From an uncultured Candidatus Finniella sp. (GTDB taxonomy: Bacteria > Pseudomonadota > Alphaproteobacteria > Paracaedibacterales > CAITNM01), in contig CAYUNR010000003.1 of assembly GCA_964446295.1 (NCBI GenBank), positions 1 to 48,475 on the forward strand: 48,475 bases of DNA. Direction: 5' to 3'. Positions 16,029-37,831 of this stretch are shown here, piece after piece; position 1 is the stretch's first letter; each line of letters begins with the position of its first letter. A model generated the notes under the pieces. It did no database searches. It worked only from the letters and a program-made list of their open reading frames with translations, and was not told the DNA's origin. Made by a program: the position numbers and the translations under genes.

Positions 16029-16724
16029 CTAACTTAAGCCTGATTTTTTCAGGGTTCGTGCTATATCCGCCTCTTTCATTCCTAATGCTGTTTTTGCAAA
16101 ATGTGCAATGTATGCGTCTTTCTCTTCTTTTGTAGTGCGCGCTTGTAATGCATCAATGTTTGCTCCTAAAAGGTCCATATCTTTAAGCATTACCTTCAGG
16201 CTTGTATTTAATTGTTCAATAATTTTTTCACTTTGAGCAACCTTTGAAGTAAGTATGCCATGGAATTCCAATAGCTTCTGATGCTCATTAATATCTCTAA
16301 AATTTTCAGGAGCACCTGCTGCTAACATCGGTAGGGGCGTACTTTCATCTTCTCTGGTTAAATCTAATGCACTAAGAGCAAGCTCTAATGATGTGTCATC
16401 AACGTCCTCTTCTCCGCTTGTCAGAACCTTTTCTACATCGGTTTTTCCATGATAGAGATTAGTTTCAATCCCAATGATTTGTTGAGTTTTCCAAGTCTTT
16501 ATAACTTTTCTCTTTCCACGAATTTGCTCCATTAAATCAGTAATTTGACTTTTTGCCTCTTCAAGTTCTATTTCTAAAGCCGTATTTTCACTGCTTAACA
16601 CACTAATTTGTTGTGGAAGGGGTAACCTGCTTTCAGTATTGCTTCCATCTTCTGGGTATTTTGAATCACTTGCATTCACTATTGCTATTGCGGCAAATAA
16701 CGTCATTAAAAGTAGTTTTTTCAT
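16029..16724 (-). CDS. Secreted coiled-coil protein, leader-cassette family 1
   Basis: 231 aa with leader MKKLLLMTLFAAIAIVNASDSK. ATG start preceded by AAGGAAACAATAA. The body is heptad-like and E/K/L/Q-rich. Confidence 0.75.
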   Translation of the reverse strand: MKKLLLMTLFAAIAIVNASDSKYPEDGSNTESRLPLPQQISVLSSENTALEIELEEAKSQITDLMEQIRGKRKVIKTWKTQQIIGIETNLYHGKTDVEKVLTSGEEDVDDTSLELALSALDLTREDESTPLPMLAAGAPENFRDINEHQKLLEFHGILTSKVAQSEKIIEQLNTSLKVMLKDMDLLGANIDALQARTTKEEKDAYIAHFAKTALGMKEADIARTLKKSGLS

Positions 16725-16891
16725 TTATTGTTTCCTTAAGGACAGGTTTTTATCTTAAAATTGCGTGGATGGTTATCGCCCATGCAAATATTACGTAAGC
16801 TGTGTAGCGTATTATTGCTCAATTTGTCAAATTGATGTTTTTATTTTGTTAAAAGGCATGCCATCATATTTTTATGGGTGCAAAACAAGAA

Positions 16892-17482
16892 TTATTCTAA
16901 GCCTAACCAATCGTCAAACCCATCTAATTTTGCGATTCCTTGTTTGTCAAGAAAAGCTGCCACGTGCGGTGGCACATCGGAAAGCGTGTACAATTTGTCA
17001 TCAAAGTTTTGATAGCAATAGACAGTATATATCACACTTTTATTCCTAGATATAACTTCTTCTATATCATATATCTTAATAGCTTTGTTATCTGAATACA
17101 CTACAACATTAGGGCACATATAATACGTATTTCCTGCGTCTGCAACTGTATAACTTGTTCTTTTATATCTTGGATAGACAAAAATGGTTATGAAATCACG
17201 ATTCCATTCTTGGACTTCGTTCTTCTCAATTTTTGTCTCAAGCCCTACTAGCTGCAACTCCCACAACTCCAACAGTCTTGGGTCCCGGGTAGAATGCTTT
17301 TTTAAAAAAAGCATATCGTCTGGGTCTAGTATGTCACACACTTTTCTGTTCATGCCTAGTCGTAAGCTAGAAGCGGCTTCTACTGGTTTGCCGGTTGCCG
17401 CCCCATTAATCATTGCCGACATGGCAAGCAATATTAAAAGTAGTTTCTGCACTTGTTGGTTCCGATTCTTTATCTGATACAA
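16892..17482 (-). CDS. Secreted protein, leader-cassette family 1 (divergent 5-prime end)
   Basis: 196 aa. The TTG at 17482 sits in the conserved ATAATTG context, but the family-type leader (VQKLLLILLAMSAMINGAATG) begins at a GTG 30 nt downstream (17452). The true start is uncertain. Confidence 0.65.
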   Translation of the reverse strand: MYQIKNRNQQVQKLLLILLAMSAMINGAATGKPVEAASSLRLGMNRKVCDILDPDDMLFLKKHSTRDPRLLELWELQLVGLETKIEKNEVQEWNRDFITIFVYPRYKRTSYTVADAGNTYYMCPNVVVYSDNKAIKIYDIEEVISRNKSVIYTVYCYQNFDDKLYTLSDVPPHVAAFLDKQGIAKLDGFDDWLGLE

Positions 17483-17497
17483 TTATACACAAACTGG

Positions 17498-17546
17498 ATT
17501 CTTTGTCCCTGCGTGGCTCGCAATGACGCTTGGTAACGTCATTACG
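17498..17546. repeat. GTCATTGCGAG-type palindromic repeat
   Basis: Hairpin CGCAATGACG-(8 nt)-CGTCATTACG. The minus strand reads CGTCATTGCGAGCCACGCAGGGACAAAGAATCC, related to the unit at 43722-43756 and 48428-48462. Confidence 0.6.
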
Positions 17547-17566
17547 AGCTTGCAAGGCAGGCGTGC

Positions 17567-35529: not shown

Positions 35530-36358
35530 CAGGATAATATGTGTCAGTAATGTATTTTTCTATGGCAGTTCTATGGGTAGCAAAAAAATCTGCATGTGGT
35601 GCTTCAACATTCTCTAGAACAAACTTAATTGCGCCTTCCCTAGAAGTAACAAGTCGTTTTGCATGAAAATTATTCAACAATTTTAAAAGTTTGGCCTGTG
35701 GTTCAATGATAGCTTCTAAGTTTGCTGCGTAGTCTCTAATCGCTGGAATGTCCTGTCTTAGAATTCGACTTCTCCATTCCATAAATGCAAGTTCTTTTTG
35801 TAAAATTTCATCTGCACGTTCATCGCTAATATATGTACCGCTTTCACTTAGCTCTTGAATCTCATCATAGCAAGCTAGCTGTGTTTGATACTCGCTATGT
35901 TCTGCAGTGAGAGCGTTGTGATGAATTTCTGCTTCATTTCGTTTTTCAGCAATCCATGCAAGTGTTCTTGTTGTTGTTTTATTCTTATGTCTATGAGATT
36001 TTGAAAGGCCAAGAGCAGGCCCAAATCCATGATTTCTGTTTATCTTTACTTTTGTAGTTTTCTCGCAGTGCTCAACATATTCTTTAGCTAATTTCTCAAT
36101 ATGCCTGCTTACATCCCAAGGAAGTGCCTCTATAATTACATTTTGTGGTGAAGTTGTGCTATTCGTAGTTCCTGCAGTTTGCCATGGCCACTCGTCAGCC
36201 TCAGCATTAGAAGTGCTCATATTTCGATCAACTGTGTCATCATCAGATAAATATTCAAATGCTCTCTGCATCATGGGATCATCATCAGCACCAAACACTT
36301 CCGTTTGAAAACTCACAAGAACAATAAATAAAATTGCGAATAACATGACGTTTTGCAC
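35501..36358 (-). CDS. Secreted hypothetical protein
   Basis: 285 aa with GTG start. The leader MQNVMLFAILFIVLVSFQTEVFGA resembles that of 37301..37831 (MQAIMLYVIYFAILSTMGLHA). Overlaps the pilin-like gene start. Confidence 0.7.
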   Translation of the reverse strand: MQNVMLFAILFIVLVSFQTEVFGADDDPMMQRAFEYLSDDDTVDRNMSTSNAEADEWPWQTAGTTNSTTSPQNVIIEALPWDVSRHIEKLAKEYVEHCEKTTKVKINRNHGFGPALGLSKSHRHKNKTTTRTLAWIAEKRNEAEIHHNALTAEHSEYQTQLACYDEIQELSESGTYISDERADEILQKELAFMEWRSRILRQDIPAIRDYAANLEAIIEPQAKLLKLLNNFHAKRLVTSREGAIKFVLENVEAPHADFFATHRTAIEKYITDTYYPDVEDDAATV

Positions 36359-36563
36359 GTTTTAAACCTATGACACAAGTGTAACTAGCATTTAATTAAA
36401 TTTCATTTAAAATTTTTCTGGCCTTCCATGAAGTTTACATTTTTGATGTTTTGGATAAGGTTCTTATAGCATTTGCATTATTGTTTGTTATCATTGATAA
36501 TCACCCGAATATTACATGTTATAATTGCGATGATGGTAACATCTTAACCAATAGGAACCGCGT

Positions 36564-36977
36564 ATGATTCTTGATTTATCATCTTTTCAAAAAGCCATTG
36601 AAACATTAGAAGAAGCTTTGAATGCGTATCAACAAGGCAGTGAAAATGCGTTCATACGCGATGCCTGCATTCAACGTTTTGAATACACCTACGAAATTAC
36701 ACACAAAATGATCCGCAGGTATCTTGAGATGAACGAATCAACAGCAGCTGTTGTTGCTGATCTTAGCTTTCCTGGTCTTATTCGCTTGGCCTATGCGCGG
36801 GGGTTGCTGCACGAGGAATTTGTGCAATGGAAAGCATTCAGAGATGCCCGTAACACCACAAGCCACACCTATAATGAGGAAAAAGCTAAAGATATTTTCG
36901 AAAGCATTCCAAAATTTCTTGCTGAGGCAAAATTTCTTTATCATGAAATTCAACGCAGGCAGGATCTTGAAAAGTGA
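36564..36977 (+). CDS. hepT: HEPN-type toxin, HI0074 / nucleotidyltransferase-substrate-binding family (HepT-like)
   Basis: 137 aa. Typical opening LDLSSFQKAIETLEEAL...RDACIQRFEYTYE and an Rx4HxY HEPN motif (RNTTSHTY). GTGA overlap with the next gene. Confidence 0.8.
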   Translation: MILDLSSFQKAIETLEEALNAYQQGSENAFIRDACIQRFEYTYEITHKMIRRYLEMNESTAAVVADLSFPGLIRLAYARGLLHEEFVQWKAFRDARNTTSHTYNEEKAKDIFESIPKFLAEAKFLYHEIQRRQDLEK

Positions 36978-37288
36978 CATCTCCCATCGATATTCGCTCC
37001 AATGATTTAAAAATTGTGCAGCAAATCTTGACGGATACCTTGTCCACAAATGCTAAGGTATGGGTGTTTGGCTCGCGCGCTACATGGAAAACAAAAAGGT
37101 CCTCTGACCTTGATTTAGCAATTGATGCGGGCAGAACTTTAACACGAAATGAGAATAGCGCTCTAGCCGATGCTTTCGATGAATCAGACCTTCCCTATAA
37201 AGTAGATGTTGTTGATATGCATAAGGTTAGCGATACCTTTAAAGCGATTATTGAGCGACAAATGGTGCCATTGGAATGGCAAAATTGA
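36974..37288 (+). CDS. mntA: Minimal nucleotidyltransferase, HI0073 family (MntA-like antitoxin)
   Basis: 104 aa with GTG start. The GS...DLD catalytic signature (VWVFGSRATWKTKRSSDLDLAID) and YKVDVVD are present. Confidence 0.8.
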   Translation: MTSPIDIRSNDLKIVQQILTDTLSTNAKVWVFGSRATWKTKRSSDLDLAIDAGRTLTRNENSALADAFDESDLPYKVDVVDMHKVSDTFKAIIERQMVPLEWQN

Positions 37289-37300
37289 TAGCAATTTCAC

Positions 37301-37831
37301 TTAAAATTTTTCTGACTCATAAAAAGCATCCAGATGAAAGATCAGCTTTTCAAGTTTCTGTTTTTGCTGTGCTGCTGTTCTCCACTGCCTAACCGTCGCT
37401 AATTTTGAGCGTCTCTCATCGCTTCTAACAGCTTTCTTAATTGAATGCATCGCGTGGTTAATAGCTTTTATTTGTTCTTTCGTAGTTTCAAATGGTTCAA
37501 TCCACACAGTGGCGCTGTATTCTTGCATTTGTGCATCAATTAAGTCAATTTGTGCTCCCAAAATTTCTGCTTGTTGGTGCACCCACGCTAATGATTTATC
37601 GGCATCAGAAGGCAACATACACAATTTGTTGTGCCGCAAAAGCTTCCACAATGCGCTGTCTGTTTTTAAATTCACCAGTATCGTTTCATCGCGAAACTTG
37701 TTGAATTCAACAGATGGTCTTCTAAGTAAGGAGGAGTCTTCATCTGAAGAAATTTCATTAAGTTCAGATGCGTGTAAACCCATGGTGGAAAGAATAGCGA
37801 AGTAAATTACATAAAGCATAATGGCCTGCAT
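37301..37831 (-). CDS. Secreted hypothetical protein
   Basis: 176 aa with leader MQAIMLYVIYFAILSTMGLHA. Weak similarity to 35501..36358 (leader, and SLAWVHQQAEI vs TLAWIAEKRNEAEI). Confidence 0.65.
   Translation of the reverse strand: MQAIMLYVIYFAILSTMGLHASELNEISSDEDSSLLRRPSVEFNKFRDETILVNLKTDSALWKLLRHNKLCMLPSDADKSLAWVHQQAEILGAQIDLIDAQMQEYSATVWIEPFETTKEQIKAINHAMHSIKKAVRSDERRSKLATVRQWRTAAQQKQKLEKLIFHLDAFYESEKF

Follow-up and report, generated by a model that had tools for sequence, protein, structure and literature searches.

Why would almost every gene in one stretch of bacterial DNA encode an exported protein without recognisable function? The question is raised by positions 16029-37831 (here the block) of a 48,475-nucleotide stretch of contig CAYUNR010000003.1 from an uncultured Candidatus Finniella sp. 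(assembly GCA_964446295.1); that whole stretch is called the window, and its G+C content is about 40%. The block holds 21 intact, non-overlapping open reading frames (ORFs) of at least 85 amino acids (aa) each, which we name by their left coordinate. The original prediction took 18 of them for exported proteins and the block for a host-interaction island. We now consider it fairly probable that the block is a hot spot of exported-protein genes, conserved in position and changing in content, and that at least some of its products are displayed on the cell or released to the host.

The first part of the answer lies in the leaders. We scored them with a purpose-written heuristic for the n-, h- and c-regions, so that exported, throughout this text, means bearing a predicted leader and not the output of a standard signal-peptide predictor; the Sec/signal peptidase I class is defined by a basic n-region, a hydrophobic h-region of 7-15 residues, small residues at -3 and -1 and no further membrane span. 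An N-terminal signal was found in 18 of the 21 ORFs, 17 of them Sec/signal peptidase I-like and one prepilin-like, and only the DEAD-box helicase and a HepT/MNT pair lack one. The 17 Sec-type leaders have a mostly basic n-region, an uncharged h-region of 10-18 residues and an AxA-type site without a second transmembrane segment, with predicted cleavage (arrow) at VNA↓S, INA↓A, IRA↓A, GYS↓A, SYG↓A, VFG↓A or LHA↓S. Signal-like starts are much rarer elsewhere: 6 of 26 flank genes by the classifier (about 8 of 24 by eye), 9 of 84 overlapping shadow ORFs, and 1 of 15 at a control locus from an unrelated Flavobacteriaceae. The excess in the block has p = 7e-4 against the flanks (Fisher) and p = 2e-10 against a 20% genome rate (binomial), so both the predicted count of 18 and the unusual density of exported orphans hold up against these controls.

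All exported ORFs lie on the minus strand, as had been claimed, with the sole exception of 24181..26295 (first delimited as 24145..26295) on the plus strand. The proposed leader groups are present and bigger than first stated: MKKILLM begins seven genes and MN.F.FY three, MNLSV is shared by 24181 and 27777..28931, and MRNIFK is also there, although an MQ..ML pair is weak. A canonical lipobox ([LVI][ASTVI][GAS]C) occurs in none of the block leaders, and the cysteine in the leader of 24181 (FPISC) is not conserved among its homologues. We rejected a lipoprotein (signal peptidase II) reading because no leader has a lipobox, and a shared C-terminal sorting signal on inspection of the block translations.

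Little of this content can be named. Pfam recognises five block ORFs, namely the helicase, an ankyrin protein, the HepT-like and MNT proteins and, below threshold, a pilin-like protein. NCBIfam, searched with seven block proteins (34786, 35501, 37301, 27777, 24181, 22387 and 23266), returned nothing for the orphans, and PHROGs, searched with all exported proteins but the 89-aa product of 19675..19944, gave only weak ankyrin-repeat matches for 30314. The claim that the exported ORFs lack recognisable function was thus borne out, and most of their payloads are, as far as sequence searches reach, true orphans. In contigs of four independent bioreactor-metagenome runs the block recurs at 99% identity or more and at even depth, which excludes an assembly chimera or mis-assembly. 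In a search of sequencing runs with the block sequence, all matching runs were guessed to be DNA and none RNA.

Where does the block sit among its relatives? A helicase search of species-representative genomes returned 11 related loci (L001-L011) with helicase identities of 68-97%, all of them in metagenome bins assigned to Candidatus Finniella inopinata, Candidatus Odyssella sp. or unclassified Alphaproteobacteria or Pseudomonadota; these relatives place the organism close to Finniella within the Paracaedibacteraceae (Holosporales). An exact match to the helicase was sought in public assemblies and none was found. Finniella belongs to this family, whose characterised members are obligate endosymbionts of protists (PMC11909080, PMC6447387). 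Comparison by blastn and tblastn revealed a conserved order, running from a head module like that of a gene transfer agent (GTA) through interval A, the helicase, interval B, a pilin-like gene and one or two exported genes to a transporter of the major facilitator superfamily (MFS). The backbone consists of:

10831..15743, minus strand: GTA-like head module, left anchor (portal, S78 protease, HK97 capsid, connectors; Pfam)
26314..27696, minus strand: DEAD-box RNA helicase without a signal (Pfam DEAD 162 bits, Helicase_C 109 bits), present in L001-L011
34786..35529, minus strand: type IV pilin- or pseudopilin-like gene (prepilin motif), overlapping the upstream exported gene by 29 nt
37979..39256, plus strand: MFS transporter, right anchor (Pfam MFS_1 119.5 bits)

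The head module is syntenic in L001, L002, L004, L006, L008, L009 and L011, and the transporter in L004, L006-L009 and L011. L001 departs from this order: its helicase is followed by a fragment like gene 39985, DsbD and a fragment of an NHL gene (L001 4266-9822) and not by the pilin-like and MFS genes, a rearrangement that joins the two flanks of the window.

Between these fixed points, gene content changes quickly. L006, whose helicase is 97% identical, lacks window positions 15938-23277, a clean 7.3-kb difference that comprises all seven MKKILLM genes and 22387; it also lacks 29136, the ankyrin gene 30314, 32719..34608 and the toxin-antitoxin pair. Interval B, which measures 7.1 kb in the window, is missing from L005, L011 and L008, where the helicase and the pilin-like gene are separated by 165-175 nt (L005, L011) or about 240 nt (L008) with no gene between them. 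The equivalent intervals of the relatives carry content of their own: 41 of their 55 ORFs of at least 100 aa are signal-like, and in four distant relatives 17 of 23 ORFs are signal-like and only 4 have a detectable homologue in the window. Because these intervals are signal-rich yet mostly devoid of window homologues, the position of the hot spot is conserved while its content changes. Presence of the exported genes varies among close relatives in the comparison across L001-L011, which supports the original prediction; no free-living relatives are known for the lineage.

The left edge of this variation may be visible in the source community as well. In three of the four bioreactor runs, single contigs match the window up to or from positions 15905/15938 and continue into unlike sequence. 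The breakpoint coincides with the one at which L006 diverges and suggests the presence of a co-occurring strain whose interval A is different. Metagenome contigs aligned to the block itself gave no joints or structural variants, in a comparison limited to contigs at a depth of about 5x.

Interval A is dominated by the MKKILLM array, followed by two single genes (a third, 24181, is treated below):

16029..22192, minus strand: tandem array of seven MKKILLM-leader genes (leaders, paralogy, repeat families D1 and D2)
18076..18158, minus strand: reference copy of the leader cassette, about 82 nt (-25 to +57), with Shine-Dalgarno sequence AAAGGAGA, 7-nt spacing, TTG start and signal-peptide codons
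22387..23121, minus strand: exported 244-aa orphan (TTG start, GGAG 7 nt upstream)
23266..23928, minus strand: exported 220-aa protein with a Cys-rich C-terminus and orthologues in relatives

The array members are 16029..16724, 16892..17452, 17567..18133, 18303..19463, 19675..19944, 20163..21020 and 21227..22192; gene 16892 belongs to the group by alignment, its homologous start being a GTG at 17452. L006 lacks the array, and L001 and L002 have only part of it. Its mature parts have diverged and are partly coiled-coil by a heptad heuristic, and the paralogues 18303 and 20163 retain 24% identity over 326 aa.

What the array shares most closely is its 5' end. Further copies of the cassette lie at 16667-16749, 19406-19488, 19887-19969, 20963-21045 and 22135-22217. 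Five of the seven genes have a TTG start with (A/G)GG(A/G)G 7 nt upstream, which in three of them is AAAGGAGA. TTG starts are unusually frequent here, occurring in six consecutive exported genes (17567, 18303, 19675, 20163, 21227 and 22387), and each of the six has a GGAG-type site 7 nt upstream (GGGG in 21227). Among four core copies the cassette is 67-87% identical, and identity over the 200 nt flanking it on each side is no higher than random (0.58); where two leaders have the same amino acid, the codon is identical in 50 of 66 pairs against 22.8 expected. Since the flanks are random and identical synonymous codons exceed expectation, the cassette is conserved at the DNA level and not by selection on the protein alone; the cause is either gene conversion or selection acting where translation starts. 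In relatives the MKKILLM leader precedes payloads without a homologue in the window, such as a 390-aa protein in L002. L009 has two adjacent small genes (17108-17398 and 17925-18269) with a common leader, MNTFTKII..., so arrays that share leaders recur in the clade.

The two singles behave differently from each other in the relatives. An exhaustive phmmer search of 1.84 billion representatives found for 22387 only itself and two relatives, at 42% and 35% identity, and it has no orthologue in L001-L011. Of the exported genes in interval A, 23266 is retained most widely: L001-L004 and L006 have orthologues of 53-85% identity, and L011 has a weak one of 32%.

Interval B bears the clearest marks of how such genes arise and disappear:

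27777..28931, minus strand: exported orphan of 384 aa with a leader of the MNLSV type, its mature part predicted to be all-helical (16 homologue clusters)
29136..30170, minus strand: exported MN.F.FY protein with one DSAI module and Pro/Ala-rich repeats, absent from L006
30314..31054, minus strand: exported ankyrin-repeat protein with an MRNIFK..LAHTQ leader (Pfam)
31155..31638, minus strand: pseudogene with an MKNIFK leader and a DSAI module, its ankyrin end lost (three frames, tblastn)
31904..32482, minus strand: exported MN.F.FY protein with one DSAI module, orthologues of 85-90% identity in L002, L004 and L006
32719..34608, minus strand: exported protein of 629 aa containing three DSAI modules as well as coiled-coil or low-complexity stretches, few homologues
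32594-32640 and 29052-29098, strand not assigned: duplication scars that copy the pilin-like gene's 3' end (reference 34784-34830; repeats D5, D7 and D13)

The DSAI module, about 70-85 aa long with the core ...RDGxDSAIA..., is present in three copies in 32719 and as a single copy in each of 31904, 29136 and the pseudogene. A common terminator hairpin (repeat D7) lies 3' of each MN.F.FY gene, at 29093-29136, 31818-31861 and 32669-32712. Because these hairpins and the copies of the pilin-gene 3' end accompany the MN.F.FY genes, we conclude that whole units were duplicated in tandem; repeat families D1, D5, D7, D9, D10 and D13 all bear on such local birth. Loss can be followed in the pseudogene, where an intact 327-aa protein of L004 matches three frames at 77-91% identity (tblastn) and leader repeat D10 lies at 31638; the 71-aa ORF 31322..31537 is a piece of it and was not counted as intact. 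That L004 gene unites the leader of the ankyrin family, a DSAI module and ankyrin repeats, which indicates shuffling as well as decay.

Every one of the 16 homologue clusters of 27777 is at least 68% identical, and its AlphaFold model, built from a shallow alignment, is unusable (predicted local distance difference test, pLDDT, 39.5). Gene 32719 has 4 homologue clusters among 5.8 billion proteins; a full-length orthologue of 33% identity occupies the same position in L007, and none is present in L004 or L006. The ankyrin gene 30314 has an orthologue in L004 only (66% identity). Its repeats score 34.7 bits with Ank_2 (cut-off 27.3) and 33.9 bits with Ank (cut-off 21.1), which substantiates one of the two payload types first named; the other, coiled coils, appears only by the heptad heuristic, in 16029, 18303, 20163, 21227, 32719 and 37301, and in weak Pfam matches.

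To the right of interval B, exported genes accompany the pilin-like gene:

35501..36346, minus strand: exported 281-aa protein, kept across the clade (homologues)
36564..36977 and 36974..37288, plus strand: HepT-like and MNT toxin-antitoxin pair (Pfam)
37301..37831, minus strand: exported protein of 176 aa, coiled-coil in part, with orthologues in L006 (92%) and L004 (62%)

The prepilin motif of 34786, PA↓FALLEVAIAL, fits the pattern G↓F-x-x-x-E5 followed by a hydrophobic helix, and the form (G/A)↓F-x-L-(L/I)-E with its helix is kept in seven relatives, L005-L009, L011 and, truncated, L004; the site reads LPG↓FVLLE or LPA↓FAL(L/I)E in L005, L007, L008, L009 and L011. Curated models score below their thresholds (Pfam N_methyl 14.6 bits with a cut-off of 21.2, NCBIfam ComGE 16.4 bits with a cut-off of 49), and no genes for pilus or prepilin-peptidase machinery lie within the window. 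Homologues of 35501 are 91% identical in L006, 39% in L011 and 24% in L008, and the matches in L004 are partial, at 60% over 80 aa in tblastn and 30% over 162 aa in blastp.

Is any of this under selection? We computed the ratio of nonsynonymous to synonymous substitution (dN/dS) against the L006 orthologues. The exported orphans have values of 0.16-0.27 at dS of 0.17-0.45 (27777 0.24, 31904 0.27, 35501 0.25, 37301 0.16), against 0.03-0.08 for backbone genes (helicase 26314 0.05, pilin-like 34786 0.07), so the orphans evolve under purifying selection but three to five times faster than the backbone. They are also poorer in G+C (0.388 versus 0.439), above all at third codon positions (GC3 0.30 versus 0.42, p = 3e-5); their synonymous codon choice correlates with that of the backbone at r = 0.83. 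We read the low GC3 as the outcome of fast evolution in an AT-biased genome.

The payload that says most about a possible function is the one on the opposite strand:

24181..26295, plus strand: exported 704-aa protein with a GT-A-like domain and a helical C-terminal domain (AlphaFold, Foldseek, alignment)

Its homologues form 23 clusters, none of them named and none with a Pfam domain. A DxD motif, IQD[SA]DF in the family and VYFHIQDSD here, follows the model's strand 237-241, and D243 and D245 are invariant in 17 aligned sequences down to 33% identity. Fifteen of the 17 carry a hydrophobic leader ahead of a conserved mature start, which is where the other two begin; leader sequences vary within the family, yet all of them stop just short of that start. 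With the AlphaFold model (pLDDT 84.5), the top Foldseek matches in the PDB are nearly all GT-A or GT2 proteins, among them Chs1 (chitin synthase), hyaluronan synthase, PcManGT, GtrB and BcsA (cellulose synthase), at probabilities of 0.9-1.0, E-values down to 1e-4 and template-modelling (TM) scores of only about 0.23. We therefore think it likely, on the strength of the predicted fold and the invariant motif, that 24181 is an exported glycosyltransferase of the GT-A/DxD type outside the known toxin families. Identity with a known glycosylating toxin (clostridial large toxins, Lgt, SetA) was rejected: only TcsL matched, at E = 0.1, probability 0.08 and TM 0.09. Relatives of 24181 also occur in other genomic contexts (L013 and L014), beside ordinary genes or genes for eukaryote-like domains, with no secretion machinery near them. 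The L013 contig, which has the most distant homologue, encodes several WD40 proteins and a C2H2 zinc-finger protein (1839-6747 and 15668-16612), and a data set of the choanoflagellate Barroeca monosierra yielded one of the relatives.

How might such a locus work? In the scheme we favour, a stable backbone frames intervals in which exported-protein genes turn over. Tandem duplication of whole units, each with its upstream region, leader, gene and terminator, would create genes locally, and the 5' cassette of ribosome-binding site, TTG start and signal peptide would spread or be homogenised across the copies. Mature parts would then diverge fast, and genes would be shuffled and later lost, leaving the pseudogene and the differences in presence between near-identical relatives. 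The products would cross the inner membrane by Sec and be cleaved by signal peptidase I; at least some would then appear on the cell surface or be set free in the host cytoplasm, where coiled-coil, ankyrin and DxD-glycosyltransferase payloads would act on host targets. The periplasm contains no nucleotide sugars, so an exported enzyme dependent on them would make sense only in the host cytoplasm. Passage beyond the periplasm is further argued by the lack of an obvious periplasmic role for the glycosyltransferase-like and ankyrin proteins, by the intracellular lineage and by Holospora, which releases periplasmic proteins. We regard host interaction as plausible but unproven. The comparisons show the gene anatomy, the signal-like N-termini, the synteny and turnover, the duplication scars, the selection regime and the GT-A-like predicted fold; Sec export itself, passage of the outer membrane and action on host targets are inferred from them.

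Several points weigh against this reading. The leaders are heuristic predictions from sequence. Sec delivers proteins to the periplasm only, and the window has no outer-membrane secretion machinery besides the lone pilin-like gene. To our knowledge, type VI substrates carry no Sec signals. RARP-1, an ankyrin protein of Rickettsia with a Sec signal, has reportedly been re-assigned to the periplasm. The association with a host is deduced from relatives, since the organism is known from metagenome bins. For 24181, the GT-A assignment comes from low-TM Foldseek matches (about 0.23) without sequence support, as the family profile found only a chance match (E = 0.52) among PDB sequences and the protein itself has no match in Pfam. 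The low GC3 of the orphans could also mean foreign origin, being the sole observation that favours it. Finally, the main candidate route for effectors of the Holosporales in a review of the order is an atypical type VI system (PMC11909080).

The alternative that survives best is that the exported proteins stay in the envelope, as structural or storage proteins of the periplasm or outer surface, comparable to the packed periplasm of infectious Holospora forms, or as periplasmic factors like RARP-1, and we give it a real, if minor, share of the probability. A Sec signal alone predicts the periplasm, the window lacks outer-membrane secretion genes, and coiled-coil proteins suit structural roles. 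The 89- and 63-kDa periplasmic proteins of Holospora are lineage- and stage-specific (references in PMC11909080), and Finniella species have been described as pleomorphic (PMC11909080). The Holospora proteins are themselves released in infection, however, so that this explanation overlaps with host interaction. In the periplasm a GT-A enzyme with a DxD motif would presumably lack a nucleotide-sugar donor, proteins directed at the host typically have ankyrin repeats of this kind, and such fast turnover among relatives with 93-97% identical helicases would be unusual for an envelope structure.

Could the block instead have been acquired horizontally, through a mobile element or as phage or GTA cargo? 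The composition of the orphans, the adjoining GTA head module, the relatives of 24181 in unrelated contexts and the toxin-antitoxin pair all point that way. The pair scores 118.6 bits with NTase_sub_bind and 19.1 with HepT-like, and 46 with Polbeta and 32.5 with NTP_transf_2; the HepT-like gene precedes the MNT gene with a 4-nt overlap, and the module forms an 870-bp insertion between direct repeats of about 20 nt, ATTTCAyTTAAAATTTTTCTG, at 36400-36420 and 37293-37313. The repeat duplicates the 3' end of 37301..37831, and L006 has one copy and no pair, so the sequence reads as a clean insertion footprint. Of the signs of a genomic island, however, the block as a whole has composition alone. 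Pfam and related scans found no integrase or transposase in it, PHROGs found no phage families among its exported proteins (all but 19675..19944) apart from the weak ankyrin matches, and no tRNA lies at its borders, the window's only tRNA being a tRNA-Val at 46900. Neither is the whole block absent from relatives: the backbone inside it is syntenic, and its variable genes are local paralogues with scars. The codon choice of the orphans follows that of the backbone, and low GC3 is expected of fast-evolving genes in an AT-biased genome. A prophage or GTA-cargo reading was rejected because L006 keeps the GTA genes but has no array. Acquisition of the block is therefore very improbable, and the exported genes appear to have arisen locally; what stands of the predicted host-interaction island is its density of exported orphans, and what does not is the sense of an acquired island, given the syntenic backbone, the duplication scars and the want of mobility genes.

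Very improbable, in our judgement, is programmed antigenic or phase variation in which the leader cassette is a switch point and payloads are swapped behind one expression site. DNA conservation confined to the cassette, the A6-A7 tract that five copies out of seven have behind their start codon (19675 has A5, 16892 no tract) and the contigs of the co-occurring strain that break at 15905/15938 would suit it, but there is no recombinase or invertase and there are no inverted repeats at the cassettes, each copy has its own ribosome-binding site and start, tracts of seven A are short for slippage, and the four metagenome runs, judged from contigs at about 5x, contain no rearranged forms. That most ORFs are non-functional, whether decaying remnants or chance AT-rich ORFs whose T-rich codons mimic leaders, is the least credible explanation: one clear pseudogene, the many ORFs without a homologue, the frequent TTG starts and signal-like starts in 7 of 39 shadow ORFs within the block are outweighed by dN/dS of 0.16-0.27, Shine-Dalgarno sites conserved at optimal spacing, full-length orthologues in several relatives, the confident fold of the glycosyltransferase-like protein and a signal-like rate of 86% against a chance baseline of 11%.

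Returning to the hot spot of exported proteins, we can also speculate further. The block might be a nursery of effectors, fixed in place throughout the family, in which recombination or gene conversion copies the 82-nt cassette onto new or unrelated ORFs; young ORFs would so gain export, and selection on the interaction with the host would then test them. In that case 24181 would represent a new family of host-glycosylating effectors delivered without a type III, IV or VI system. We put this forward as a rather unlikely extension.

Precedents exist for parts of this picture. Candidatus Liberibacter asiaticus has Sec-delivered effectors such as SDE1 and SDE19 (PMC7662370, PMC11414923). The likeness lies in a host-restricted alphaproteobacterium with Sec-defined candidates, mostly small or medium-sized orphans, and an undefined route across the outer membrane; there is no homology, the genes here stand in tandem arrays at one conserved site with common DNA-level cassettes, and the host is presumably a protist and not a plant or insect. 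Closer in descent, Holospora obtusa releases periplasmic proteins of 89, 63 and 5.4 kDa outside the cell or into the host nucleus during invasion (cited in PMC11909080). These too are lineage-specific, exported (here predicted) and from the order Holosporales, but Holospora belongs to the Holosporaceae and not the Paracaedibacteraceae, and no infectious form with a packed periplasm is documented for the present organism.

Other parallels are functional or formal. Type II substrates of Legionella pneumophila, including novel ones of the Ntt type, carry Sec signals, are in many cases confined to the genus and promote growth in particular amoebal hosts. Like them, the block encodes Sec-signal orphans that a pseudopilin-based machine would carry outward; unlike them, it has one pilin-like gene with no GspD, GspE or GspF seen in the window, and its genes are arrayed where those of Legionella are scattered. 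The variable lipoproteins of Mycoplasma, the lipoprotein families of Borrelia and the toxin superfamilies of cone snails combine conserved leaders, divergent mature parts and tandem expansion, and here as well conservation is higher in the 5' region and the signal peptide than in the mature part; the block differs in having no lipobox, so that its proteins are not lipoproteins, no recombinase and no sign of programmed switching. GT-A glycosyltransferases with a DxD motif, which as secreted effectors include the clostridial large toxins and Legionella Lgt and SetA, resemble 24181 in its predicted fold and its invariant hhhh-x-DxD motif; 24181 differs in that its best structural matches are GT2 synthases and that its delivery would be Sec-dependent. 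Exported orphan arrays in host-restricted bacteria are thus already known, and what is new are the families themselves, a site that keeps its place but not its content throughout a family of protist symbionts, and a leader cassette conserved at the DNA level.

Host interaction in the Holosporales is poorly understood, and for Finniella-protist systems that can be cultured the hot spot supplies concrete candidates, namely one ankyrin-repeat protein and three families not described before: the MKKILLM array, the proteins with DSAI modules and the exported protein of GT-A/DxD type. It is also a natural case for the birth and loss of exported genes in a reduced genome, and its leader cassette can be tested directly as an export tag.

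The exported-gene-rich zone exceeds 16029-37831, and the borders of the block are not natural ones, because exported genes lie in both flanks. To the left of the GTA module, signals are borne by an 898-aa NHL-repeat protein (1903-4599), a BspA-type leucine-rich repeat protein (6357-7106), a 427-aa protein with a C-terminal PEBP domain (8226-9509) and a 122-aa orphan (10434-10802). The leader of the leucine-rich repeat protein (MKKFLMIALLAMAGITAASDSK) resembles that of 16029. To the right of the MFS gene, an 82-aa ORF (39413-39661) and an 1147-aa orphan (39985-43428) are signal-like and have no Pfam, NCBIfam or PHROG match; the region of the latter has a version of about 74% DNA identity in L006 and a fragment of 41% identity in L001.

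The GTA-like module itself is a co-linear set resembling the head genes of RcGTA, with Pfam scores of 283.5 (portal), 103.8 (S78 protease), 230.5 (HK97 capsid) and 40 bits (connectors). It also includes a gp6-like connector and a head completion protein, and possibly has a further part at 477-6273. No terminase is adjacent to its portal; in its place, an exported coiled-coil gene begins 286 nt upstream of the portal gene. In Holosporaceae endosymbionts the terminase has been reported away from the main GTA cluster (PMC9254644).

The original prediction had also given most genes a hairpin terminator of their own. A clear hairpin with a T-run follows about 8-9 of the 18 exported genes, and the remainder lack a clear one. 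A consensus scan for promoters and terminators was not enriched over shuffles (21 terminators found against 15.3 +/- 3.9 expected), so that the claim depends on the individual folds.

Some minor features remain. The 86-aa ORF 46836..47096 overlaps the tRNA-Val (TAC) at 46900-46974 and is probably not a gene. Positions 17483-17566, 3' of gene 17567, hold a strong palindromic element (GCTCGTAATGACGTTACCAAGCGTCATTGCGAGC) with a folding energy of -35.8 kcal/mol (z = -5.1). Its core, GTC(A/T)TTGCGAGC, recurs at 43724-43735 and 48431-48442, giving 4 matches against 0.17 expected, and the element is probably a small dispersed repeat; the 101-aa ORF 43496..43801, which overlies one copy, may be spurious.

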